A stretch of 64,000 nucleotides of DNA. It comes from a virus. Taxonomy: Duplodnaviria; Caudoviricetes. The position numbers were made by a program, and so were the translations under genes. The stretch lies in IMG/VR virus record IMGVR_UViG_3300025000_000096, positions 649 to 64,648 of that record; one strand, given 5' to 3'. Below, piece by piece: positions 6,432 to 34,582 of the stretch; position 1 is the stretch's first letter; every line of letters starts with the position of its first letter. Below the pieces are notes generated by a model, which had not been told where the DNA came from, did no database searches, and worked only from the letters and a program-made list of their open reading frames with translations.

Positions 6432-6881
6432 CTAAAAGTAGCAAACAGTTACATTATCCGGCAGAGTGCTGGACAGCGCCTTCTCAATCTCTGCCCGGTT
6501 GGAAATCCTACCGCCATACCCTATCCCTGGAAAGTTCATACGAATGCTGACCGTTGGAAATTCATCAGCATAAACGGCCAATAGGACAGCGGACAGACGG
6601 ATCAGCATCATCTCTGCCTTGTCCCGCCAATCATATTTTACCTGAAAAAGTCCAATGGGATAATTTGGAAGGGTCGCAAACCCATATGCTCTGTTGTTCA
6701 ACCGCTGAGTGCGCAAAGCAACAACCTTACCAGCTTCTGCAGCCAGGCCATGATACTTGTCAGCCGCCTGCTTAGCCGCCCCAACACCCATGATTAGACC
6801 GTGCTTGCCAACTGTCCCATTCGTTGTTACAACCCATAAGTCGGCCTTTTTCCAAAGGTCCTCTTCTCTAATCTGGCACAT
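6432..6881 (-). CDS. macrodomain (ADP-ribose binding/hydrolase-like) protein
   Basis: VVTTNG...LIMGVGAAKQAA..Y...FQVKYDWR...FPGIGYGG, a phage macro-domain pattern. Confidence 0.75.
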   Translation of the reverse strand: MCQIREEDLWKKADLWVVTTNGTVGKHGLIMGVGAAKQAADKYHGLAAEAGKVVALRTQRLNNRAYGFATLPNYPIGLFQVKYDWRDKAEMMLIRLSAVLLAVYADEFPTVSIRMNFPGIGYGGRISNRAEIEKALSSTLPDNVTVCYF

Positions 6882-12893: not shown

Positions 12894-13176
12894 GTTTAAA
12901 ATCCTTGTTAATTGGCGTGTTGTTAGCTTTCTCTAATACTAGCTCTTGCTCAGAGTCTCCTGTTGGGAACAACAGTGGCCTGTACAGTTCGTGGCAGGCC
13001 CGGCATAGAAATAGCTGACTCTTATAGCTCTCTTTGTAGCTTTCAAGGTGCTTTGCCCGGCCATATACATGATGCACCTCTGCCCCAGCAACCAGCTGCT
13101 TTAGAATAAAGAAATGGCGAGTGCAGTACCCGCCATCTCTGTAGATTACCCTCTTTCTAGTTGGTCCCCGGTCTAT
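12880..13176 (-). CDS. HNH endonuclease
   Basis: Frame extends upstream of the listed ORF: RKRVIYRDGGYC...EVHHVYGR...LCRACH; apparent ATA start. Confidence 0.65.
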   Translation of the reverse strand: MDRGPTRKRVIYRDGGYCTRHFFILKQLVAGAEVHHVYGRAKHLESYKESYKSQLFLCRACHELYRPLLFPTGDSEQELVLEKANNTPINKDFKHDTD

Positions 13177-13760
13177 CTTTTTATCCTCCCGTTCGAGTGT
13201 GTGTACCAGTATTCAACGGCAATGTCCAAGGCGGTTGCGTATGGGTCACCAACCTGTCCCTGACAAGCCAGCTTTGCGAGCTGGTCAACCCGCTCATTGT
13301 TTTCTACGCCGCTGTGAGCTTTTACCTTTAAGATTGCGACGTTGTGAAAGACCGAGAGGGTTAGGATTTCCCCCCAAAGATCTTGGTGGCTTTGGAGGAT
13401 TTTTGACTTGTTCTTTATGTTTGAGTAGCCATCTATTACATACTGGCTGTCTGTGTAAACCGCCACATTTGAGGGAGCTTGGAGGGCTCGAAGTGCCCGT
13501 AGAAAGGCGGTAAGCTCCATGCGTATGTTTGTAGAGTGCCAAGAAGACCCGGACATCTCCTTCTCAACAACTTCTCCGCTACTCCTCATCGTCCGAAGGT
13601 AGCAGGCCCACCCACCCCTTCCTGGGTTTGTTGGCATTGTTGATCCGTCCGTCCACACCTGAACGCCTGGCCAGCCAGACTCTGGTTTTCTCAGTGCGGA
13701 CTCTAACCTTTCCTGCCGGATTACGCCTGGGTAGGGGCAGGGGGTGTGATTTTCTGTCAA
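13173..13760 (-). CDS. rnhA: ribonuclease HI
   Basis: VWTDGS..NPG.GGW, TNIRMELTA, YTDSQYV, DLW, KVKAHSG..NNERVDQLA. Confidence 0.92.
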   Translation of the reverse strand: MTENHTPCPYPGVIRQERLESALRKPESGWPGVQVWTDGSTMPTNPGRGGWACYLRTMRSSGEVVEKEMSGSSWHSTNIRMELTAFLRALRALQAPSNVAVYTDSQYVIDGYSNIKNKSKILQSHQDLWGEILTLSVFHNVAILKVKAHSGVENNERVDQLAKLACQGQVGDPYATALDIAVEYWYTHSNGRIKR

Positions 13761-14929: not shown

Positions 14930-15677
14930 AAGCCTAGCTAAAAGAGTTTTGTCGTTCACAGAGGCTGTGCAGCATGTAGAAGATGTTGCTCCAGAGGCAG
15001 AAGTTGATAGCATTGTTCGTGCAACGGAAATGCTGGTCAGTGGTATGACAATTGCACAAGTGGCTAAGCAGCTTGATATTAAAAAAGCTGTTGTGCTGGG
15101 CTGGCTGCAGAACACGCCCGGCATGGTCGATGCTATCCGAATTGGCAAAAGCAACCTAGAAGACTGGCGCATGGCCCTTATTCAGCGACAGTTTGCACTA
15201 GCTGCAAATATCTCACAAGGTATATTAAGCCTTGACATGGAGCTGCTAACTCTTCCGCCCAAACTTTTGGCAATTATACAAAAGCAGGCAAACGCAGTTT
15301 TGGATATGGGGATGAAGAAGAACTTGGAGATCAGAGAGGAGGAGCAGGAGGCAACTTTGTCTGCTGCTGTAAGCGCTTTGGACTATCTGGCCTCAGTCAT
15401 AGCCACCAACCAGGCGCCTGTGTCAGAAGTTCGTATAATCATCCCTGGAGAGTTCACATCCGAGGAAGTGGTTGAAGCAACCATTAAGGATGATCAACCA
15501 ACTTTTGGAGTGTTCGGGTCGGTGGATCGAACAGATAAGGGCTTCCTGTGCCACATTTGTGGAGAAGAGGCTAAGAACTTGCACAGCCACGTAACTCGAT
15601 CACATCATATGAAGGCTGCAACGTATGAAGCGACATATTTGCTTGATACTGGGAAGTTGAAAACATGTCAAATTTAG
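14916..15677 (+). CDS. putative terminase small subunit (HTH + C-terminal zinc finger)
   Basis: HTH (GMTIAQVAKQLDI...V.GW) and CHICG...L.SH..RSH; directly upstream of and overlapping TerL. Confidence 0.55.
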   Translation: MDQDKSLAKRVLSFTEAVQHVEDVAPEAEVDSIVRATEMLVSGMTIAQVAKQLDIKKAVVLGWLQNTPGMVDAIRIGKSNLEDWRMALIQRQFALAANISQGILSLDMELLTLPPKLLAIIQKQANAVLDMGMKKNLEIREEEQEATLSAAVSALDYLASVIATNQAPVSEVRIIIPGEFTSEEVVEATIKDDQPTFGVFGSVDRTDKGFLCHICGEEAKNLHSHVTRSHHMKAATYEATYLLDTGKLKTCQI

Positions 15678-17587
15678 CCCTAAGTTCTGCTACAAAAGAG
15701 AACCCGCTGGCCTATGGAATATCCTACGTTGACCTTTTGGAAGGCAAGAAGTGGGATCTTTCCCGTAGAAAGTGGTCTGTTGAGCTCTACCAGGCTGCAA
15801 ACCCATACCTTATCAGCCAATACCCAGACGAGTATGCCCGCAGCGTAGTGATGATGAAACCTACGCAAATTGGAATGAGTACACTGTCCATCGTTAAGAT
15901 GTTCCATTTTGCAGACAACTTCCCTGCTCGGGTGATGTACATCCTTCCCCGGCAACAGGACTATTTAGACTTTGTAACTACTCGTGTAGACCCCATGATC
16001 AAGCGGTCTGCTCGTCTTTCTGCTCTTCTTGGCAGTCCTGACTCTACAAGAGCTAAGCAGTTCGGGCAGAGCTACTTGTTCTTTATGGAATCCACTGTCG
16101 AGCCCAGAATGATGCCTGCTGATGCTTTGTTCATGGATGAGGTTGATTTGTGCAACCCGGACAACCTAGGCACTGCTCAAAACCGTTTAGATGATTCCAA
16201 GTGGAAGCTTAAGTTCTGGCTGTCTACTCCAACGATTCCTAACTATGGAGTGCACAGCCGATACCTTCAGTCCGATATGCGCACCTGGCTTATCCGCTGC
16301 AAAGGGTGCGGTTTTTGGCAGCCGGTAGAGTGGGAGTCAAACCTTAAAGTCTATGGCGCAGACGATGCCCCTGAGAAGGTCCAGCTTGAGTGTGTGAAGT
16401 GTGCAAAGGTAATTGACATGGAGACCATTCAGGCCGGGAAGTGGGTGGCTGAACGTCCCGACAGAAGCAAAGATATTGTTGGCTACCACGTCTCCCAGCT
16501 CATGGTGCATGACGTAGCAACGGTGTACAAGGCATATTTGGACCCAGAGACTACAACACTTGAGTTTTGGAGGAAGAGGCTAGGGAAGCCATACGAGCTT
16601 GCAGGGGGCAGCGTTTCTCGGGAAGACATTCTCGGCGCCTGCTACGACGACACCCTCTACCTGGAGCCTGCATATGACGGCAAGAGCACGTACTTTATGG
16701 GGGTTGACCAGGGTAATGAACTTCAAGTAGTCATTGCAAAGACCGAGCCAAACTCACGCAGGCTTAAGGTTATCCACATTGAATTTGTTCCGTACTCTGC
16801 AGAAGTTGCAGACAACAACTCCGGGTTTAACCGGATTGCCAACCTGATTCGGCAGTACCGGGTAAAAACAGCCGTTATAGACGCTGATCCAAACCGGCAC
16901 TCGGTACGGGCGCTGCAGCAGATCTTCCCAGGCACAGTGTTCCTGGCCGACTATCTGAATATCAAAACTCGGGTGGAAAAGATTACTGGCAGGATTGGGA
17001 AGATGGAAGGCGTCACCATTGGCCTGAAGGTGAATAGAACAGAGGGCCTGGACTACCTTATGCAGACCATTCGAGATGGGCTGTGGCAGCTGCCAACAAC
17101 CGCTGGAGGAGCAATCCCTACCATGGTGGAAAACCTGATCTCACATGTAACAGCGCTTAAGCGGGATGTGGAAGAGAAGAGAACGCCCAGTGGTATGGAG
17201 CAAGAAGCTGTTTGGCGCACGATCCGCCCGGACCACTTAGCACACAGTATGCTGTTCCTAAAGCTGGGGGTTGACATGCGCAGGGCAAACTCTGGTAAGA
17301 TCGCCATCATTGGAACCGGCCCTTCAGCAACAGCAGTTGAGCAGCCTACAGAAGATGCAACCCTAAAGGTTATGGCCCTTTTAGCAGAGGTTCCACAGGT
17401 GCAAGTTCAGGAGTTTTTAAAGGACCCAGAATCATTGGCCATCCCATTCCCATTGTCCCACAAGCTCCCAAAGGCCCTTGAAGAGTTCTCAAAAGAGGAT
17501 GTTTTTTGGGTGCTTCGGCACATAGCCACTTTTGGAAATGCACCAATACCGAAGACACGAGAAGAACGAATCTTGCGTTTTTCGTAA
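15665..17587 (+). CDS. terL: terminase large subunit (GpA-like)
   Basis: Walker A K.TQIG.S, Walker B LFMDEVD, LSTPT coupling motif, CxxC zinc pair, GYHVSQL, MGVDQG nuclease, PDH.AH. Confidence 0.9.
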   Translation: MSNLALSSATKENPLAYGISYVDLLEGKKWDLSRRKWSVELYQAANPYLISQYPDEYARSVVMMKPTQIGMSTLSIVKMFHFADNFPARVMYILPRQQDYLDFVTTRVDPMIKRSARLSALLGSPDSTRAKQFGQSYLFFMESTVEPRMMPADALFMDEVDLCNPDNLGTAQNRLDDSKWKLKFWLSTPTIPNYGVHSRYLQSDMRTWLIRCKGCGFWQPVEWESNLKVYGADDAPEKVQLECVKCAKVIDMETIQAGKWVAERPDRSKDIVGYHVSQLMVHDVATVYKAYLDPETTTLEFWRKRLGKPYELAGGSVSREDILGACYDDTLYLEPAYDGKSTYFMGVDQGNELQVVIAKTEPNSRRLKVIHIEFVPYSAEVADNNSGFNRIANLIRQYRVKTAVIDADPNRHSVRALQQIFPGTVFLADYLNIKTRVEKITGRIGKMEGVTIGLKVNRTEGLDYLMQTIRDGLWQLPTTAGGAIPTMVENLISHVTALKRDVEEKRTPSGMEQEAVWRTIRPDHLAHSMLFLKLGVDMRRANSGKIAIIGTGPSATAVEQPTEDATLKVMALLAEVPQVQVQEFLKDPESLAIPFPLSHKLPKALEEFSKEDVFWVLRHIATFGNAPIPKTREERILRFS

Positions 17588-18437: not shown

Positions 18438-18656
18438 ATGATTTATCAATACCGATGCCTCGCCTGCAAAATAGAATATCAAAGACGTGAGTCCATGCTG
18501 GAAAAGCACATTTACGTATGCCCCGCTTGCGGAAACGTTACTCGGCGTATGTTCTTTGCAACAGCCGCAATCGTCAATGGTACCCACTTTGTTGGGCAGC
18601 ACAAAAATGAGGGTATCACCAGTTCGAATGTTTTAGAGTATGCCTCTAGGACTTGA
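18438..18656 (+). CDS. FmdB-like zinc-ribbon protein
   Basis: MIYQYRC.AC......S.......CPACG..RR.F. Confidence 0.7.
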   Translation: MIYQYRCLACKIEYQRRESMLEKHIYVCPACGNVTRRMFFATAAIVNGTHFVGQHKNEGITSSNVLEYASRT

Positions 18657-20116: not shown

Positions 20117-20185
20117 GCTGTCACTTCCTGGGGATAAGAGGCCCTTGTAGCGCTTCTGTGGTTGGTTCGACTCCAATTGGCAGCT
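20117..20185 (+). tRNA. tRNA-Thr(TGT), weak D arm
   Basis: GCTGTCA/TGGCAGC acceptor; loop CT TGT AG; T-loop TTCGACT. Confidence 0.6.
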
Positions 20186-20381
20186 CATGTCCCGGCCATG
20201 GTCTGATCCCATAAATAGGGGTGCGCATGGTTGGGACCGAATTTTCCGAGGGCTGGTTTTTTGTACATGTCCAGCGGCATCTTCGGAAAAGCCTACAGGC
20301 CCTTGCTCCCCCTGCGTGATGGTATTGCGCCAGGCCCGTAAGACGGCGAATGCAACCAGGGGGACGCAAGAGCACAAATTT

Positions 20382-20455: not shown

Positions 20456-20556
20456 CTCAGCTGCGCACGCTGATCAAAGGCTATCAATAATTCGAGGCCA
20501 AGACAGCTAATTAGTACGGTCCGAAAGGGCGTGTGGCAGCTTCTTTGGGAAATCAT

Positions 20557-20629
20557 TGCCTCTGGGTGCGGATAGTATGCACGTATCGCTTTGAACGATA
20601 AGACGCAGGGGCGGAGCCTGCAGAGGCAA
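20557..20629 (+). tRNA. tRNA-Gln(TTG)
   Basis: TGCCTCT/AGAGGCA; TATCG-CT TTG AA-CGATA; T-loop GGCGGAG. Confidence 0.75.
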
Positions 20630-20687
20630 CTTGGGCTAGGTGGTAGGCCATTATTTACAACACCAGCCTAGTTCGATTGTAGCAAGC

Positions 20688-21260
20688 ATGAGCACAAATA
20701 AAAAAGCCAATAAAGTAAAAGAGCTGCTACGATTAGGGGTCTCTACAAAAGAGATTTGTGAGGCAACCGGCCTTAAGAAGGGGGTTATTAGCTACCATCG
20801 TAACCGCCTCGGGGTAGAGATTGGTAAATATGGCAACCGATATGATTGGGAAGATATTCAGCGGGTGTATGACGCTGAGCAGCTTACCTATGATGAACTA
20901 CATGCCAGATTTGGGGTCACAAAAACACCAATAAGTCTTGCCATCTCCCGTGGTGACTTTACACCGAGAGTTACAGAAGCCACATTTTCAGAAAGAACCC
21001 TTTTCGAGGTGGATCAAAGTCACAGAGTGGGTGGAACAAACAGGCAAGCTATCAGGAGACACGCCCGAACAGTGCTTAACAGAGCAGGAGTTCCCAAGGT
21101 TTGCTCCTCTTGTGACTGGAAAGAGCATGTAGAGGCTTGTCATATCAGGCCAATAGTTTCTTTCCCCCCAAGCACGCCTATCTCTGAGATCAATGCGCTA
21201 GACAACTTAACGTATTTATGCCCAAATTGCCATTGGGTACACGACCACAAGTCAGAATAG
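20688..21260 (+). CDS. HNH homing endonuclease with N-terminal HTH
   Basis: C..CDW..HVEACHIRP...N.L.NL..LCPNCHW..D; lies between two tRNA-Gln genes. Confidence 0.85.
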   Translation: MSTNKKANKVKELLRLGVSTKEICEATGLKKGVISYHRNRLGVEIGKYGNRYDWEDIQRVYDAEQLTYDELHARFGVTKTPISLAISRGDFTPRVTEATFSERTLFEVDQSHRVGGTNRQAIRRHARTVLNRAGVPKVCSSCDWKEHVEACHIRPIVSFPPSTPISEINALDNLTYLCPNCHWVHDHKSE

Positions 21261-22016: not shown

Positions 22017-22089
22017 GGATTCTTAGTATAAATGGAAAATACACCGGGCCGTAACCCCGCGAATGCTGAATCATACTCAGCAGAATCCA
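22017..22089 (+). tRNA. tRNA-Tyr(GTA), short variable loop
   Basis: GGATTCT/AGAATCC; loop CC GTA AC; T-loop ATCATAC. Confidence 0.7.
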
Positions 22090-22295
22090 CCTAGGCATGC
22101 CAGATTCGGTTCTGGCCTCTGCAAAAAGTTATAGGTCAACGCATTCTGAGATACTGAATGAAAGACCTCCCAGAAACCCTGGGTACTCTTAGGACATTAT
22201 GCTACTCCTGTGGGAATAAGAGCCCAAACGAGCATACAAGGGCAGGCCGGGAAGTGTGCCCAAGCTGGATAAGCCCCTAGGCCAGCAGGCACTAT

Positions 22296-22813: not shown

Positions 22814-22816
22814 CAC

Positions 22817-22888
22817 GCTGTGATAGTTTAACGAAAACGTCCGGGATCATGCACCGGAAGACCCTGGAACCGTACCCAGGTGTGGCAC
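22817..22888 (+). pseudogene. degenerate tRNA (CAT anticodon, Met-like)
   Basis: D, anticodon (TCCGG..CAT..CCGGA) and T stems present; acceptor stem poorly paired. Confidence 0.4.
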
Positions 22889-23297: not shown

Positions 23298-23371
23298 GGC
23301 CTGTTGGTCTATGGGTATGACTACACTCTGTCGAAGTGTGTGAGCGAGTCCGAGTCTCGCACAGGCCGCCA
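23298..23371 (+). tRNA. tRNA-Asp(GTC)
   Basis: GGCCTGT/ACAGGCC-G-CCA; ACACT-CT GTC GA-AGTGT. Confidence 0.88.
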
Positions 23372-23547
23372 CAGGCCCAGAAGTGGGTGTTGCAGCAGAG
23401 ATAACTCTCCTACACAAAAAACTATGCTGGAGGCAGACGCAGGCCAACGACCCTCTGAAATAAGTGGGTATGCTTTGGCGAACGGATAGAACCTCGGTTG
23501 AAATGACCGAATACGCCCCCCACCTGACGGCACCTGGAGGGGAATAC

Positions 23548-23618
23548 GCTTCCTTCTGCTAAAAGTAGGCTCTGTCCCCCTCACGGACAGGATGCGGTTG
23601 CAAGATCCGCAGGAAGCA
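23548..23618 (+). tRNA. tRNA-Glu(CTC), atypical
   Basis: GCTTCCT/AGGAAGC; loop CC CTC AC; T stem closes with T.T. Confidence 0.65.
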
Positions 23619-23620
23619 CA

Positions 23621-23760
23621 GGGCACACAAGGCTGTCCAGTTTCAGCGCATGGTCAAACGCACGCCTAGGCTACGTGTTAGTAGTAAGTTGTGTGGGTTC
23701 GACTCCCCACCACCAGTAGCTTCTGGTATCGGTTCCGGTAAGACTCCGGGATGTGTGCCC
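23621..23760 (+). ncRNA. circularly permuted tRNA-like RNA 1
   Basis: GGGCACACA/TGTGTGCCC closing stem; T-arm with TTCGACT; ACCAG/CTGGT closed hairpin; TTCCGG/CCGGGA hairpin. Confidence 0.65.
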
Positions 23761-23764
23761 AAAT

Positions 23765-23839
23765 GGTTGCTTAGCTCAGTTGGATAGAGCGCTGCCTCGA
23801 CATGGCAGAGGTTCACTGGTTCGAGCCCAGTAGCTACCA
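23765..23839 (+). tRNA. tRNA-Val(GAC)
   Basis: Canonical D arm; CTGCC-TC GAC AT-GGCAG; TTCGAGC. Confidence 0.9.
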
Positions 23840-23847
23840 CAAGAAGT

Positions 23848-23950
23848 CCGTAACCTTGCCGCCAGGGGCATTAACGGTTCGAGTCCGTTTTGGTGCTGAA
23901 CACGCCATAAGTTATGGGAACAAACCTGTTCGACCCAGGAGAGGTTACGG
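23848..23950 (+). ncRNA. circularly permuted tRNA-like RNA 2
   Basis: CCGTAACCT/AGGTTACGG closing stem; AACGG-TTCGAGT-CCGTT T-arm; TGGTG/CGCCA closed hairpin; further arm. Confidence 0.65.
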
Positions 23951-23959
23951 TTTCTACTT

Positions 23960-24030
23960 GTCCCCTTCTGCTAAAGGAAGGCACACTCGTTTTCAGCGAG
24001 AAAATAGGATTTCGAGATTCCTAGGGGACA
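23960..24030 (+). tRNA. tRNA-Glu(TTC), atypical
   Basis: GTCCCCT/AGGGGAC; loop TT TTC AG; T-loop TTCGAGA closed by T.T. Confidence 0.7.
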
Positions 24031-24089
24031 CAAGTTCCTTTATGCCTGATACGCATAAGAAAGAGACCATAATTGGCTCGTTAAAAAAG

Positions 24090-24265
24090 TAGGTGGTCTA
24101 CTGCAGATAAGCAGCGATAAGGTCCGTTGCTCCTACGTTAAGGAGCCCACTGCTGAGGCCCTGGACGGGCGAGGGGTTCGACTCCCCATAATCCCCCGGA
24201 TGGGGACTTTGTTCGATTCAATAAAGCAGTCATGTGTGCGCAGCGCATTGGAGGAAGGCCCCCTA
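24090..24265 (+). ncRNA. circularly permuted tRNA-like RNA 3
   Basis: Outer stem TAGGTGGTCT/AGGCCCCCTA; core ACTGCT/AGCAGT (24149-24230) enclosing hairpin, GGGG-TTCGACT-CCCC, TCCCC/GGGGA hairpin, TTG-TTCGATT-CAA. Confidence 0.6.
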
Positions 24266-24322
24266 GGCACATAAATTACAAGGGGGGTAGCCCACGCTCG
24301 TTGGGTTTATGCGTGGATAACT

Positions 24323-24413
24323 TGGGTGGTGACAGAGTGGTAATGTTGCCGTCTTGAAAATGGACGATGTCCCGAAGAGGGGCACGGGGGTTCAACTCCC
24401 TCCCACCCAGCCA
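24323..24413 (+). tRNA. tRNA-Ser(TGA)
   Basis: Long variable arm; loop CT TGA AA; G73-CCA. Confidence 0.88.
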
Positions 24414-25055: not shown

Positions 25056-25126
25056 GGCCTGATAGTTTTTAAAGCGGCAGAACAGACGAAAATCGGAAAG
25101 TGCTGGTTCGAGCCCAGCAAAGGCCA
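25056..25126 (+). pseudogene. degenerate tRNA-Phe(GAA)
   Basis: Intact T arm (GCTGG-TTCGAGC-CCAGC) and partial acceptor; anticodon arm truncated (GACGAAAATC). Confidence 0.5.
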
Positions 25127-25133
25127 GGTACTT

Positions 25134-26680: not shown

Positions 26681-26780
26681 CTAGCCTGTACCAGCTGAAC
26701 CCAGGCATAATACTGAGCCTGGCTAGACTATACGTGGTAATCCCAGAAATGGGGCAATCTCTTGCTGGCAGGCTTCTTAT

Positions 26781-26962: not shown

Positions 26963-27024
26963 CAAACCCATTGAACAATTAAAGCGCTTATGGCTGGAGG
27001 ACGACACTCCGAATGGGTTTATAC

Positions 27025-27103
27025 GTCCCATTGGCGGAATTGGTCTACGCAATACCCTTAGAAGGTATCCGAAAGGGTCTCAGTCCGAATCTGAGATGGG
27101 ACA
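27025..27103 (+). tRNA. tRNA-Leu(TAG)
   Basis: GTCCCAT/ATGGGAC; ATACC-CT TAG AA-GGTAT. Confidence 0.85.
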
Positions 27104-27153
27104 CACAAAACACCAAATCTGTGGTATACTTAAGGGATCAGGAGACAAACACG

Positions 27154-28122
27154 TTGACAAAGCTACTTGAGGATGCTGTAGCCGGTGTGAATAAGAAGTA
27201 TGGGTCGCTGAGCATTTTAACCCTTGACAGTGACAGCGTAGAGGCGGTGGACGTTATCTCTACTGGATCTTTAATGCTTGACAGGGCAATTGGCGTGGGC
27301 GGGATACCTCGTGGGAAGATCACAGAGATCTACGGACCAGAGTCCTCTGGAAAGACCACCCTCTGCCAGCACATAGTTGCCAATGCTCAGCGTAAAGGAA
27401 TTGCAAGCCTCTACATTGATATGGAGCACGCAACCGACCCCACATACCTTGCAAGGACTGGGGTGGACCTGCACAAGCTGCTCTTCTCCCAGCCGGACGA
27501 TGGAACCCAGGCTCTTGGAATTGCAGAAGATATGATCAAGTCTGGTCAGGTCGGCCTGGTGATCATTGACTCTGTGTCCTCTCTTGTCCCAAAGGCTGAG
27601 GCAGAGGATGCTGACATGGGCGATGCTGTAATGGGCATGCAGGCCAGGTTGATGTCCCAGGCCCTTAGAAAGATCAACCCAGCGATAAAACGATCAAACA
27701 CAGCTGTCATTTTCACAAACCAGTTGCGTAACAAGATTGGAATTTTTTTTGGGAGCTCTGAGACAACCTCTGGTGGGAACGCCCTCAAATTCTACGCCTC
27801 TCTCCGATTGGACATCCGCCGAGCAGAGTTTCTAAAGGTGGGCACGGAGATTGTTGGGATCGAGAGCAAAGTGACCATCAAGAAGAACAAGGTGGCTGCA
27901 CCGTTCAAAGAAGCTAGATTCGAGATCCGTTACCCAAACGGGATAGACGAGGTCTCAGATGTGTTTTCAGCATCCGTTGAAACAGGGGTTATTGAGCAGC
28001 GAGGTGGGCACTACTACTACAACGGTGAGAAGCTGGGTCATGGACGGGACGCTGTATTGGCTATTTTACGATCAGCCCCTGGAACAGTTGAAGATCTGAG
28101 AAATCAGGTATTGACAAGATAG
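27154..28122 (+). CDS. recA: recombinase A
   Basis: GPESSGKTT, IIDSVSSLVPKAE, QARLMSQALRK, ETTSGGNALKFYAS, KNKVAAPFK; TTG start after AGGAG. Confidence 0.97.
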   Translation: MTKLLEDAVAGVNKKYGSLSILTLDSDSVEAVDVISTGSLMLDRAIGVGGIPRGKITEIYGPESSGKTTLCQHIVANAQRKGIASLYIDMEHATDPTYLARTGVDLHKLLFSQPDDGTQALGIAEDMIKSGQVGLVIIDSVSSLVPKAEAEDADMGDAVMGMQARLMSQALRKINPAIKRSNTAVIFTNQLRNKIGIFFGSSETTSGGNALKFYASLRLDIRRAEFLKVGTEIVGIESKVTIKKNKVAAPFKEARFEIRYPNGIDEVSDVFSASVETGVIEQRGGHYYYNGEKLGHGRDAVLAILRSAPGTVEDLRNQVLTR

Positions 28123-29906: not shown

Positions 29907-30085
29907 CAACAGGCGGATTTGCTTGCCGAGGCACGACATCCTTATCAAGGGGGGTGTCGGCCCTTAGAAGTATCGGAGAAATCTAGTGGGTGAGAGACCC
30001 ATCCAATAGGGTGCAAGGCCCAGCACTTTCCCCCATAGCAAAGCTGGTTAAGCTCAATTGTAGCTTGTGGGAGATGGTAACATTT

Positions 30086-30931
30086 ATGGGAAACTCAACA
30101 CACGTAACAGCATTTAGGAAGAGGAGAATCCAATACGCAAGGGGGCTTCTTGGAAGCAAGTGCTGCCTGTGCGGCTACAGTACCTTTGGTGGTGCTTTAG
30201 ACTTTCATCACATAGATCCAGCAGAGAAAGTGTTCATTATTTGCACAAGTAAGACACCCGGATCATTACAGTTTTTCAAAGAGTTGGCTAAGTGTGTCCT
30301 TTTGTGTGCAAATTGTCACCGGGAAGTTGAGGCTGGTGTCACTGAGGTACCCCCAGACGTCTATAGGTACTCCTTCTCGGAGGAGGATGTTAAGCGGTTC
30401 TTTAGCACCGCCAGCAACTATCACGTCAAACCTACCAGGGTGTGCTCAGTGTGTGGGGGTCCTGTCCCTGGACAGAGGGTATACTGCTCTCCCGCTTGTT
30501 CTGGCCTTTCCGCAGAGCATAAACGAAAAATCCCCAGCTCTGTAGAGGAACTAACCAGTCTCCTACAAGAGCATAATTGGAACATATCATCAGTTGCTCG
30601 TTCTCTTTTTGTAACCCAATCTGGGGTTAGGAAGGCCCTTAAGGCTGCTGGCCTGATCCGGCGCAGGGAGACAGCTACTGCGGTTTGCGGTTTTTGCGGG
30701 GAGGAAATCCCCAAGGGCACCTACAATAAGTACTGTTCCCGTGCCTGTCAGAATCGTGGAAATCCTTCTGCGGTGTTATTTGAGGAGGATTTAGCCCGTG
30801 TTTTACAGGAATACGAGCGTAGTGGTTTTATTCTTAGGGTTGCCGCTAGGCAGCTCGGAATAAACTACAGCACGCTAAAGGGTTTTTTGGTCAGAAATAA
30901 AGTATATCATGCCAGTATAACTCAGAGGTAA
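30086..30931 (+). CDS. HNH endonuclease with C-terminal zinc fingers and Fis-like HTHs
   Basis: KCCLCGY....ALDFHHIDP..K...ELAKCVLLCANCHREV; two CxxC..YCSxxC + HTH modules. Confidence 0.85.
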   Translation: MGNSTHVTAFRKRRIQYARGLLGSKCCLCGYSTFGGALDFHHIDPAEKVFIICTSKTPGSLQFFKELAKCVLLCANCHREVEAGVTEVPPDVYRYSFSEEDVKRFFSTASNYHVKPTRVCSVCGGPVPGQRVYCSPACSGLSAEHKRKIPSSVEELTSLLQEHNWNISSVARSLFVTQSGVRKALKAAGLIRRRETATAVCGFCGEEIPKGTYNKYCSRACQNRGNPSAVLFEEDLARVLQEYERSGFILRVAARQLGINYSTLKGFLVRNKVYHASITQR

Positions 30932-30983
30932 GAGTTTCCGCCCCTTAAGCGGAGAGTCGCAGCGTCGAGACCTGCTACTGGCA
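30911..30983 (+). tRNA. tRNA-Lys(CTT)
   Basis: GCCAGTA/TACTGGC; TCCGC-CC CTT AA-GCGGA. Confidence 0.78.
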
Positions 30984-31644: not shown

Positions 31645-31730
31645 TGCCGGACGGCAAGACCCACTTTCATAACTGGAAGAAGCTAATCCCAGCCGCAGGA
31701 GTTTTCTCTTGCGGCTTTTTGCTTATCTAG
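31644..31730 (+). pseudogene. orphaned 5' fragment of DUF2227-like gene
   Basis: TAATG-coupled ORF MPDGKTHFHNWKK... matches MPGGEVHDAEWKK... at 32633. Confidence 0.65.
31691..31721 (+). terminator. intrinsic terminator
   Basis: AGCCGCAGGAG-tttt-CTCTTGCGGCT-TTTT. Confidence 0.7.
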
Positions 31731-31770: not shown

Positions 31771-32646
31771 ATGGGACAAGCTACTTGCTCTCGCTGTGGT
31801 AACTCATTTTTGCGTACAAGGGATACCGGCTCTAGGCAGCTGTACTGCTCAAAAGAATGCAGATACGGACCTCGTGTATCTCTTGTGTGTGACACCTGCG
31901 GGCTCTCTTTCACTAGACAGGCTAGTAGGGTTAACCGGACAGACAGAAAGAGCAGCGCTGGTAACTTCTGCTCTAAAAAATGTCAGTTCTCCTTTGTTAG
32001 GCATACCCCAGTTGAAAGAGTTCCTGTTCCATGCGCTGCCTGTGGCAAAGTGCTTCTTTTGACGCGGGTAGAACATCTTAGGCGGATAAATAAGACTATT
32101 GGTGGCGCCGTGTACTGCTCCCGCAAATGCCAAGCAGCGGGGTCCTCCCTTCGAGTACCTATGGTGTCCTTATCCTGTGTCGTCTGTGGGAAGGAATTTT
32201 CTAGGCGTGCGTCAAAGCAAAGGGAGCTAAAGAAAAACAATCCCAGAGACTGCTGCGGAATTTCTTGCTCTATGAAACTCCGGCAAGAGGATAGGAAAGA
32301 GTATGATCCTTTTAGGACAGTGCTCTCTTCTCTGCTTGCCAAGTTTTCTAAGCAGTCTGGAAACGCAGTAGCACTCTCCTTGGTTGATTTGAAGGAACAG
32401 TGGGATTCTCAGGGTGGGAGGTGCCCATACACTGGTATTGAGCTAATTCTTCGGCCAGCCAGGAAGAGGGGTGGCAAAGACCCATATCAGGCAAGTGTTG
32501 ACAGAATAGACTCTTCTTTGGGATACACTCCGGGAAACATAGAGTTTGTAGCGCTGTGGGTTAACTATGCAAAGAACTCTTGGAGTAGGGAGGAGACAAT
32601 GTCTTTCTTAAACAGGTATGCGGAGTACTCCCTTGCCAGGCGGTGA
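31771..32646 (+). CDS. HNH-like homing endonuclease with four zinc-finger repeats
   Basis: 4x CxxC...(Y/F/C)C(S/G)xxC; W..Q.GRCPYTG...SVDRIDS..GY..GNI......VN.AKN. Confidence 0.85.
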   Translation: MGQATCSRCGNSFLRTRDTGSRQLYCSKECRYGPRVSLVCDTCGLSFTRQASRVNRTDRKSSAGNFCSKKCQFSFVRHTPVERVPVPCAACGKVLLLTRVEHLRRINKTIGGAVYCSRKCQAAGSSLRVPMVSLSCVVCGKEFSRRASKQRELKKNNPRDCCGISCSMKLRQEDRKEYDPFRTVLSSLLAKFSKQSGNAVALSLVDLKEQWDSQGGRCPYTGIELILRPARKRGGKDPYQASVDRIDSSLGYTPGNIEFVALWVNYAKNSWSREETMSFLNRYAEYSLARR

Positions 32647-33163: not shown

Positions 33164-33169
33164 AGATTG

Positions 33170-34582
33170 ATGAAGACGCTATCACTTGCACCAAAAAAGA
33201 CCTCATCAAATCGAATAGAGGTTATTCGTGGCATACAGGCGAGCGGCCTAGCTTCCGTTTCCCAGGGTGAGGAAGTAAATTCAAGTAACCAAAAGTTTAC
33301 CCTGTTCTGGGCTATGATGGGGGCGATCCACATCCACTCCTATGTTAGAGCTGCTATGGGGTCTATTGGCCGGGCAGTTGTAGGTACCTGGTGGAAGGTT
33401 GCACGCAAGCCGGGGGATAAGCAAGGTACCCGCCTGCAGAAGAAGCGCCTTGAGGCGTTCTACGAAGCCACGGAGGCAAAGACCTGGACAAATGTTCAGG
33501 ATTACTACTCTGTTGCATACAAGTTTATGATCGGCGCAATGTATCTGCGCTACTTTGGCCAGACAGCTTACAAAATCCACAGGAATAGAGGAGGGGACCC
33601 TATCGGGTTCGACCACTTGCCCGGCCTTATCGTTCCAAATACAGACAGCAATGGCTCGTTCAGAACACCTGCTTTTACACAGTACCTGACCAGCGACTTG
33701 ATGAGCAAGGTTGACTATGCAGATCCGAAAGATATAATCTACATCATCAACCCGGACTGGGAAGGCTCTCCGATAGGTGCGAGTGACTTAGAGGCCCTTG
33801 CCGAGTTTACATTACCGCTGGACATCTACCTCCAAACAGCTGCACGAAGCTATCTGGAGAACTCTGCAAAACCCGAGATCGTCTACATGCTTCCACAAGA
33901 CGTGTCTGATGAGGCTTTCAACGCCTTTGTGGCCAAGCTGAATGAGAAATATACGGGCGCTGCGAATGCTGGGCGAAACCCGGTAGCTGTTCAAGGTGAC
34001 TTGAAGATTTTGCGGGTGGATGACATGCCTGCCAGCGTCCCATATCAAGAAGCACGCAAAGATACTCGGGACGAAACATTAGCGGTGAGCGGAACAGGTG
34101 CAGCTTTAATGGGTGTGTCAGAGAGCTTGTCGAGTGCAAACATTCGAGAGACTCGGCGCCAGTTCCATGAGTCAACGATGGTGCCCCTGCTTAAATTTAT
34201 CGAGCTTGCGTTTTATGAGCAGGTGCACCTTCGTTTGTTCAAGATCTCTGGGTGGATTCTTAAGTTCAATCAGCCCGACTTTCTAACGGCTGTTGAGCGG
34301 GCCACTGTCCATATGCGCTACGTAGATATGGGCGTACTTTGTAGAAATGAAGTTCGTGAAGAGCTCGGTCTTGAGCCTGTTCCGGGCGGAGACACATACA
34401 ATGTCCCAGTTCCTCCGGGTTCCCAGACAAGCAACCCGCCAGCCGGACGGCAGCCAAAGCCGGATGATCCGTCTGCCACAGGTGAACCAACAATGGATGA
34501 CCAGGACCCACCCAGAGGGGATCAGAACGGGGACAAGCCGAGAGATTCTATGATTAGAAGTTTTGAAGAGGATGAGGAGTAA
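33170..34582 (+). CDS. portal protein (HK97-like)
   Basis: G.S.LEAL, Y.EN.AKP, Y.G..NAG, NEVRE.LGLEP.PGGD motifs; position in head module. Confidence 0.9.
   Translation: MKTLSLAPKKTSSNRIEVIRGIQASGLASVSQGEEVNSSNQKFTLFWAMMGAIHIHSYVRAAMGSIGRAVVGTWWKVARKPGDKQGTRLQKKRLEAFYEATEAKTWTNVQDYYSVAYKFMIGAMYLRYFGQTAYKIHRNRGGDPIGFDHLPGLIVPNTDSNGSFRTPAFTQYLTSDLMSKVDYADPKDIIYIINPDWEGSPIGASDLEALAEFTLPLDIYLQTAARSYLENSAKPEIVYMLPQDVSDEAFNAFVAKLNEKYTGAANAGRNPVAVQGDLKILRVDDMPASVPYQEARKDTRDETLAVSGTGAALMGVSESLSSANIRETRRQFHESTMVPLLKFIELAFYEQVHLRLFKISGWILKFNQPDFLTAVERATVHMRYVDMGVLCRNEVREELGLEPVPGGDTYNVPVPPGSQTSNPPAGRQPKPDDPSATGEPTMDDQDPPRGDQNGDKPRDSMIRSFEEDEE

Follow-up and report, generated by a model that had tools for sequence, protein, structure and literature searches.

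RNA1 (23621–23760), RNA2 (23842–23955) and RNA3 (24149–24231) are three elements on the + strand of a transfer RNA (tRNA) island in a tailed phage. They lie within a stretch of 64,000 nucleotides (nt), called the window below, that covers most of the 64.6-kb IMG/VR virus record IMGVR_UViG_3300025000_000096 from groundwater metagenomes. A first-pass annotation, made from the letters of the window, had described them as a family of circularly permuted tRNA-like RNAs, and our analysis confirms this observation in part: RNA1 and RNA2 are real, strongly self-closed and tRNA-like, and RNA3 is weak. With a probability of about 0.5, we regard all three as non-decoding RNAs that are built on an unpermuted tRNA scaffold, occupy spacers between tRNA genes and derive from tRNA processing, RNA3 being a relic of tRNA-Ser(CGA). 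The three elements carry T-arm-type hairpins and are not ordinary decoding tRNAs, being missed by the Rfam tRNA model and absent from the 29 tRNAs that ARAGORN calls in the island with default settings. The loop words and stems listed for them in the annotation were all found at their positions, where the coordinates of 3′ strands refer to their first bases.

Structure of RNA1 and RNA2

RNA1 has a length of 140 nt and fills the spacer between tRNA-Glu(ctc), which ends at 23619, and tRNA-Val, which starts at 23765. Its ends form a perfect helix of 9 base pairs (bp), GGGCACACA (23621–23629) with TGTGTGCCC (23752–23760), and the ensemble probability (p) of this helix is 0.96. When the spacer was shuffled, an end-to-end helix of 9 bp was reached in 12 of 20,000 cases, and its fold z value of −4.37 was the lowest among the 20 inter-tRNA spacers of 40–320 nt. 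Within the closing helix, a hairpin at the D position (23632–23647, GCTG/CAGC, p = 1.00) has the loop TCCAGTTT, which lacks GG. A T-loop-like hairpin recognised by its motif stands at the anticodon position (23693–23710, loop TTCGACT at 23698–23704); its stem can be drawn with 3 bp and a 7-nt loop or with 5 bp and an 8-nt loop. It is followed by a hairpin at the position of the variable arm (23712–23727, ACCAG/CTGGT, p = 0.98) and by one at the T-arm position (23734–23750, TCCGG/CCGGG, loop TAAGACT at 23739, p = 0.97), which is separated from the 3′ closing strand by 1 nt. The loops at the D and T positions of RNA1 are both non-canonical.

RNA2 comprises 114 nt with a core at 23848–23950 and fills the spacer from the end of tRNA-Val (23840) to the start of tRNA-Glu(ttc) (23960). 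The core is closed by 9 bp, CCGTAACCT (23848–23856) with AGGTTACGG (23942–23950), with p = 0.99–1.00. An outer helix of 5 bp (AGAAG/TTTCT, 23842–23846 with 23951–23955, p = 0.92) is joined to the core by a G-U pair. For this spacer 15 of 20,000 shuffles reached a 9-bp end-to-end helix, and the fold z was −2.86 (20 spacers tested). Four hairpins can be named inside: one at the D position (23857–23870, TGCC/GGCA, loop GCCAGG), which was drawn from the sequence and has an ensemble p of 0.04; a T-arm-like hairpin at the anticodon position (23873–23889, AACGG TTCGAGT CCGTT, loop at 23878, p = 0.59); one at the position of the variable arm (23891–23907, TGGTG/CGCCA, likewise drawn from the sequence, p = 0.04); and a T arm (23925–23939, CCTG TTCGACC CAGG, loop at 23929, p = 0.01) that ends 2 nt before the 3′ closing strand. 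The second T-loop word of RNA2, TTCGACC at 23929, had been overlooked in the first-pass annotation.

The five-helix fold named here for RNA1 lies 5.5 kcal above the minimum free energy (MFE) and that of RNA2 4.3–4.6 kcal above it. Together with RNA3 these gaps amount to 4.3–6.1 kcal and fall inside the range of 0–14.6 kcal that we obtained for the cloverleaves of the 29 tRNAs called by default. RNA1 and RNA2 had been placed close to the flanking tRNAs, and the distance to the adjoining genes is indeed only 1–4 nt when two non-canonical tRNA-Glu genes are counted. These were found by ARAGORN at an 80% threshold: Glu-ctc (23548–23619, + strand) flanks RNA1 on its 5′ side and Glu-ttc (23960–24031, + strand) flanks RNA2 on its 3′ side. 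The T loops of both Glu genes lack the TTCRA word and their D loops lack GG. The gene between RNA1 and RNA2, tRNA-Val(gac) (23765–23840, + strand, 53.8 bits), is canonical.

The word GTTCGASTC occurs seven times in the 64-kb window, always on the + strand and inside the island. Four copies belong to tRNA T arms, and the other three form the middle hairpins of RNA1 to RNA3; the expected count is 0.51, and none of 100 shuffles reached seven. This T-like hairpin is also the only sequence that blastn-short found in common between the three elements (RNA1 and RNA3 share 15 letters), so that their sequences do not establish them as the family that had been proposed. A canonical 7-bp acceptor stem stacked on a 5-bp T stem is seen in none of them. 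The lengths of acceptor-type helix, gap and T stem are 9 bp, 1 nt and 5 bp in RNA1 and 9–10 bp, 1–2 nt and 4 bp in RNA2.

When RNA1 to RNA3 were compared with all Rfam families up to E = 10, the only match was one of 13 nt to the T loop of transfer-messenger RNA (tmRNA) in RNA1, with 10.5 bits. A tmRNA was considered for RNA1 since relatives of the phage have one; this was rejected, as neither ARAGORN nor Rfam made a call and no acceptor pairing follows the T-like hairpin. A search for intron-bearing tRNAs (ARAGORN -i) gave no call at these elements either.

RNA3 and tRNA-Ser(CGA)

RNA3 is a weak class II tRNA-like element of 83 nt that ARAGORN calls as tRNA-Ser(cga) at the 80% threshold. It is formed by ACTGCT at 24149 with AGCAGT at 24225, the loop TTCGACT at 24177, the hairpin TCCCC/GGGGA at 24192–24206 and the loop TTCGATT at 24212. 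The closing helix consists of 6 bp and a G·A pair, the T stem has 3 bp, and the loop TGGAC at the D position contains GG. The 6-bp closing stem was matched in 796 of 20,000 shuffles and is not significant, the fold z is about 0 and hence no better than that of shuffles, and the cloverleaf lies 6.1 kcal above the MFE. An outer stem that the annotation had assigned to 24090/24265 shrinks to TAGG/CCTA, i.e., 4 bp.

Comparison with a related phage locus, L029, shows the order Glu(ttc)-Ser(tga)-Ser(cga)-Cys(gca) there versus Glu(ttc)-RNA3-Ser(tga)-Cys(gca) in the window, where tRNA-Ser(tga) is located at 24323–24413 (+ strand). The tRNA-Ser(cga) of L029 is canonical and has the anticodon loop TTCGAAA. 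RNA3 shows what would be looked for in an orthologue of tRNA-Ser(CGA): it sits in the syntenic slot, has class II architecture and carries CGA at the anticodon position. Since the UUCGA anticodon loop of tRNA-Ser(CGA) already resembles a T loop, little change would be needed to make it look like one. We slightly favour the view that RNA3 is a relic of tRNA-Ser(CGA), that is, a decayed or exapted copy.

Helix order and proposed origin of the elements

The helices of RNA1 to RNA3 follow each other as in an unpermuted class II tRNA (acceptor, D, anticodon, variable, T, acceptor), and the order that had been taken as a sign of circular permutation is this same order. In the unpermuted frame the closing stem would represent an over-long acceptor-type helix and the first hairpin a D-type arm. 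The hairpin with the TTCGA(C/G)T loop would occupy the place of the anticodon arm, the third hairpin would be the variable arm, and the last one, beside the 3′ strand, may be a real T arm. We prefer this frame because ARAGORN at the relaxed threshold reads RNA3 and part of RNA1 in this way, together with the synteny to Ser(CGA), and because RNA2 and RNA3 have GG in the loops at the D position and TTCGAYY in their last loops. In the case of RNA1, ARAGORN takes 23672–23761 as a class II tRNA, with the 8-nt form of the T-like loop as anticodon loop and the two following hairpins as variable arm and T arm. RNA2 was not called at 80%. This threshold also yields doubtful calls with positive cloverleaf energy, for example at 18549 and 31507, and its calls are a reading of the sequence, not a proof. 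The second T-loop-like heptamer that the annotation had seen in a D arm is present, and it reads as a true T loop, separated from the 3′ closing strand by 0–2 nt. The further claim that the RNAs have no chargeable 3′ end does not follow once the frame is read unpermuted, as supported by ARAGORN and by the analogues described below. More generally, a class II cloverleaf with a UUCGA anticodon loop can by eye be mistaken for a permuted tRNA.

All tRNAs of the 13-kb island lie on the + strand. Four sigma-70-type promoters with a perfect 12/12 consensus were found on this strand in and before the island (17596, 18653, 18903 and 28111), and a strong intrinsic-terminator-like hairpin, the strongest such site, follows 3′ of the island (31691–31716, + strand). 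A scan for promoters and terminators revealed no strong site within 23600–24300. RNA1 to RNA3 are therefore likely to be co-transcribed with the tRNAs of the island. The four consensus promoters also suggest that the host possesses a standard bacterial sigma-70.

We propose that RNA1 and RNA2 would be self-closed spacer modules of a polycistronic tRNA precursor, in which the end-to-end helices fold each spacer on itself and the neighbouring tRNAs could consequently fold independently. Excision of the neighbours by RNase P and 3′-end enzymes would then release the spacer as a compact, probably stable, tRNA-like by-product. One possible independent role of the released RNAs would be to titrate a factor that recognises T arms.

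Closed spacers and the search for homologues

Spacers that close on themselves are not restricted to RNA1 and RNA2. In the window, the spacers 26682–26780, 26964–27024 and 20457–20556 are closed and contain several hairpins without any T-loop word; the one at 26964–27024 has a 9-bp end helix and z = −3.3. To find relatives, we used an alignment of the large terminase, which led to 22 IMG/VR loci and 26 metagenome loci; a scan of IMG/VR with the single large-terminase protein gave 0 relatives. Two loci, L029 and L025, with terminases 53% and 50% identical to that of the window, have a clearly syntenic island. Its order is Thr, Pro, Arg, Ala … Gln, Gln, tmRNA, His, Tyr, Asn, Asp, Glu, Glu, Ser, Ser, Cys, Gly … in both. 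The tmRNA gene follows tRNA-Gln(ctg) (L029:15213–15476; L025:7350–7627), and none was called in the window.

The islands of L029 and L025 contain spacers with end helices of 9–11 bp that span 0.95–0.99 of the spacer and have no T-loop words. Examples are 13107–13193 and 17699–17889 in L029 (10-bp end helices, span 0.98–0.99) and 7235–7349 in L025 (9 bp, span 0.95). At 6611–6708 of L025 a 9-bp outer helix spans 0.74 of the spacer, with z = −4.9. Over all closed spacers of the lineage, the end-to-end helices comprise 6–11 bp and z goes down to −4.9. As closed spacers recur without T-loop words in the window, in L029 and in L025, the end helices of RNA1 and RNA2 exemplify a general closed-spacer design and are not tied to the T-like hairpins. 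Although the spacers between Arg(tcg) and Gln(ttg) in L029 and L025 are syntenic to the copy in the window, they do not align with it, which implies that closed-spacer modules evolve fast. Annotations of phage tRNA islands usually leave the spacers between the tRNAs empty; here the spacers themselves are folded modules, some of them with a tRNA frame.

Searches for the elements themselves gave little. The region 23372–24322 matched only tRNA-Val-like pieces when compared by blastn with 50,697 phage records, and blastn-short of RNA1 to RNA3 and of three spacers against all loci returned T-arm words only. A pattern specific for RNA2 had 0 matches, and a neighbouring ORF (open reading frame) of 304 amino acids had no relative in IMG/VR. 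Among the 22 loci from the terminase alignment, a large island is seen in L016 only, and RNA1 to RNA3 are absent from all of them; among the 26 metagenome loci, the syntenic region is covered only in L029, where it is occupied by ORFs. The sequencing runs listed as containing the stretch are 4 DNA runs of one study, which may be its source, and include no RNA run; their contigs are identical and show neither variants nor ends.

In two of the loci, lone T-arm hairpins were observed 10–18 nt after a complete tRNA (L029:18690–18716; L015:16146–16170). They have a stem of 6–8 bp and a canonical loop (TTCGATT or TTCAACT), and no other part of a tRNA.

Similar architectures in other phages

IMG/VR was scanned for a T-arm word that is followed by a second T-loop word 20–45 nt further on. 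This resulted in at least 117 stretches, and 80 loci were examined. At 54 of the 80 ARAGORN made no call. At about 20 of the 80 the first word belongs to the T arm of a tRNA that ARAGORN did call, and an orphan T arm follows it; at two (L069 and L124) ARAGORN assigned the first word to a tRNA-Ser(cga), as its anticodon loop. Both hairpins have at least 4 bp in 58 of the 80 loci, and in 28 of these 58 a closing stem of at least 7 bp, with at most one G-U pair, abuts the second T arm. Controls in which the 3′ window was shifted by 12, 20 or 30 nt gave 6, 3 and 3 cases, respectively. The closed elements with two T arms measure 90–145 nt, and about 17 of them are distinct in sequence. Several analogues, namely L065, L117, L070 and L099, have a tRNA at a distance of no more than 20 nt.

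Two members of a second set, which comprised 20 loci, pass the Rfam tRNA model: L122 (42.9 bits) and L129 (33.0 bits). In both, the acceptor, the D arm and the last T arm are arranged as usual, and an insert of 56–61 nt that includes a T-like hairpin takes the place of the anticodon arm. Weak matches to tmRNA were obtained for L124 (21.9 bits) and L070 (14.3 bits). A tRNA-framed family of 94 nt is present in nine contigs (L068, L072, L075, L090, L096, L098, L102, L104 and L131, at about 276–375). Its 7-bp acceptor is stacked directly on the T arm and shows three compensatory pairs, and further features of the family are a T-like hairpin close to the 5′ side, which is invariant, and a hairpin of the form GGG-TAGCT-CCC; some copies are called by ARAGORN as tRNA-Pro. 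Neither the 94-nt family nor the elements of the families termed A and B had an Rfam match at E up to 0.01.

These data demonstrate the repeated occurrence in phages of unpermuted tRNA frames that enclose a T-like hairpin, and the recurrence suggests a class that is missed by standard tRNA finders and by Rfam. In the literature searched, which largely excluded subscription journals, no account was found of phage RNAs that have a tRNA frame and a second T arm. In general terms, tRNA-like candidates are mentioned in a survey of structured-RNA candidates from viruses published in 2023 (PMC10690425).

Some single loci deserve mention. L065 (about 242–375) has three T-arm-like hairpins and an 8-bp closing helix and is flush with a tRNA gene on either side. 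L071 (about 256–366) also has three T-arm-like hairpins; its 5′ part overlaps a called tRNA (219–293), and the closing stem may be spurious. At L112:232–336 (− strand), beside a tRNA, a sub-threshold match to the YrlA model of bacterial Y RNAs (36.5 bits, cut-off 69) points to a possible phage Y-RNA-like gene.

Comparison with known RNAs

The closest known systems are RNAC (species 1 RNA, rnaC, 139 nt) and RNAD of phage T4, small structured RNAs whose genes likewise stand in a phage tRNA cluster and share its strand. Beside the 3′ end of RNAC lies a canonical T arm (CCGGG UUCGAAU CCCGG); with its terminal helix, this RNA thus has a tRNA frame without a usable anticodon. The same combination was found for the elements of the window: location in a tRNA cluster, same strand, terminal helix, T arm on the 3′ side and no usable anticodon. 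This likeness concerns the layout; no similarity in sequence was noticed, and no search aimed at it was made. In contrast to RNAC, for which the computed fold contains one T arm, the window RNAs have a second T-like hairpin at the anticodon position, and their end helices are longer (9–10 bp). Expression has been shown for the T4 RNAs, whereas the elements of the window are known from their sequence alone. A review gives the roles of RNAC and RNAD as unknown (PMC3014915). If RNA1 and RNA2 are stable, they would add to a small group of unexplained RNAs from tRNA clusters, in which RNAC and RNAD have been without a role for decades.

With class II tRNAs, and tRNA-Ser(CGA) in particular, the elements share the order of helices, the positions of the arms and UUCGA at the anticodon loop; RNA1 and RNA2 differ from them by large inserts. 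The tRNA-like domain of tmRNA is similar in having a T arm and a terminal helix, but no tmRNA was called in the window and there is no tag reading frame.

Evaluation of the proposed origin and of alternatives

A number of observations weigh against our interpretation of RNA1 to RNA3 as unpermuted spacer RNAs with a tRNA scaffold. The Rfam tRNA model has no match to any of them at E up to 10. The closing helices of RNA1 and RNA2 comprise 9–10 bp instead of 7, with 1–2 unpaired nt before the T stem, and unusual stretches of 45 nt (between the first two hairpins of RNA1) and 17 nt (between the last two of RNA2) interrupt the frame. The T-like hairpin of RNA1 has an ensemble p of 0.00, since an irregular 17-bp hairpin (23652–23704) uses the same bases, and in RNA2 thermodynamics favours other inner pairings, leaving p ≤ 0.04 for the first, third and fourth hairpin. 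No homologue of RNA1, RNA2 or RNA3 was present in the searched collections, so that covariation lends no support, and L029, the only syntenic relative covering the region, has MazG-type ORFs where RNA1, tRNA-Val and RNA2 stand. The analogues from other phages were chosen by the motif itself; they are heterogeneous and have no demonstrated kinship to the window RNAs, and a hairpin right after the T-like arm is modestly enriched among them (14 of 23 versus 6.9 expected).

Further points concern the relation to tRNA-Ser(CGA). RNA3 has C after the closing stem and lacks G73-CCA, while tRNA-Ser(tga) and tRNA-Ser(gct) of the window end in G-CCA. Of an anticodon loop one would expect 7 nt, U33 and a purine at position 37, which the loop UUCGAGU of RNA2 fits; RNA1 and RNA3 have UUCGACU and thus C at position 37, a less good fit to the anticodon arm of tRNA-Ser. 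The T-like hairpins resemble true T arms, including a closing G-C pair, and agree in 16 of 16 letters with the T arm of tRNA-Glu from L016. Because they fit true T arms better than the Ser anticodon arm, descent from tRNA-Ser(CGA) would have to be regarded as uncertain.

The first-pass annotation had interpreted the elements as permuted tRNA mimics of the YrlA type, opened at the anticodon so that the closing stem corresponds to the anticodon stem, and acting as elbow decoys or as adaptors of Ro60 and PNPase. We consider this very improbable. The order of helices would also fit the layout of YrlA (closing stem, V, T, AS, D, closing stem; PMC4201824), the middle hairpins are by sequence the best T-arm look-alikes, and the long closing helices are reminiscent of the stem of Y RNAs. 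YrlA, which is known from phages too (PMC4201824), resembles the window RNAs in being a non-decoding tRNA-like module with a T arm. However, the permuted frame requires two anomalies, a D arm that has a T loop and lacks GG and a variable arm with a D-type loop, and its acceptor hairpin would have 5 bp and stand 1–4 nt from the T arm, whereas the unpermuted frame has a single anomaly, the T-arm-like hairpin at the anticodon position. The comparison with YrlA that the annotation had proposed speaks clearly against membership: the RF02553 model, with 114 positions and a cut-off of 69 bits, has a best match of 13.2 bits across the entire record (E 0.32, 23710–23825), and no match was obtained at E up to 10 on 23350–24350. 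The 13.2-bit match is driven by tRNA-Val and is an artefact of a T arm plus the next tRNA, a type of error about which the authors of the YrlA study caution (PMC4201824). The word GNCGAAN0-1G of the Ro60-binding 5′ strand of YrlA (PMC4201824) has no counterpart in RNA1 to RNA3, in which GNCGAA is missing on the + strand; three matches on the − strand are complements of the T-like loops. In place of the conserved D-type stem-loop that follows the T and AS stem-loops of YrlA there is a hairpin with a 7-nt T-type loop (TAAGACT, TTCGACC or TTCGATT) and no GG. TROVE/Ro60, RtcB and PNPase domains were not detected by Pfam in 70 ORFs of the window (14 + 56), which belongs to a record of about 54% completeness. 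We therefore reject that the elements belong to YrlA.

Two other explanations concern all three elements and are both unlikely in our view. RNA1 to RNA3 could be functionless debris, remnants of decayed or rearranged tRNA genes in which the stems are relics or due to chance. This would agree with the orphan T-arm hairpins in the islands of L029 and L015, with a further tRNA-like remnant in the window (25056–25131), with many aberrant tRNAs of the island, with the weak stems and z of about 0 of RNA3, and with the failure to find homologues. The annotation had named decayed tRNAs as an outcome that would contradict it, and RNA3 is probably such a case; perfect 9-bp end helices that exceed an acceptor stem and lie flush with the tRNAs, as in RNA1 and RNA2, are not expected from decay, considering that 12 and 15 of 20,000 shuffles reached them, and the RNA1 spacer is the most structured of 20. 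Slightly less probable still is that RNA1, RNA2 and perhaps RNA3 belong to an undescribed but widespread class of phage RNAs, in which a second T arm replaces the anticodon domain of a tRNA scaffold. Such RNAs would be cut from tRNA precursors by tRNA-processing enzymes of the host and might act in trans as decoys or sponges for proteins that recognise the T arm or the elbow, for example modification enzymes, processing enzymes or defence nucleases that target tRNAs. The frequency of the two-T-arm architecture in unrelated phage contigs is well above that in shifted controls (28/58 versus 3–6), several analogues lie flush with tRNAs (L065, L117, L070, L099), and most match no Rfam family. But this set was selected by motif and is heterogeneous, some members being tRNAs with inserts and others weakly tmRNA-like, it shows no homology to the window RNAs, and closed spacers that lack T loops are just as common in the lineage of the phage.

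Other features of the phage and its island

The window represents a siphovirus. Family scans identified the large terminase (15665–17587) and the portal (33167–34582), between which the island is situated, and also a tape measure protein, RecA, ribonucleotide reductase and HNH endonucleases. Rfam called 24 tRNAs in the island. One of them, at 30911–30983 (48.9 bits), is absent from the ARAGORN list.

Default ARAGORN missed six tRNA genes that are well paired and non-canonical: the two Glu genes next to RNA1 and RNA2, Tyr-gta (22017–22091; short, class-I-like), Met-cat (22816–22888), Gln-ttg (20557–20630) and Thr-tgt (20117–20186). ATCGTAN T loops occur in several called tRNAs, among them Gly-gcc and Thr-cgt. 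The syntenic tRNAs of L029 are canonical. The remnant at 25056–25131, a tRNA-like element of 76 nt, is flanked by tRNA-Thr(cgt) and tRNA-Ser(gct). Its T arm (TGCTGG TTCGAGC CCAGCA) is perfect and is accompanied by an acceptor-like stem of 6 bp; a D or anticodon arm is not recognisable in it, and ARAGORN made no call even at 70%.

Three genes for HNH-type endonucleases (20640–21260, 29990–30931 and 31771–32646) and the recA gene (27013–28122) lie within the tRNA island. The start of the longest ORF for RecA overlaps tRNA-Leu(tag), and its true start is probably located further downstream.

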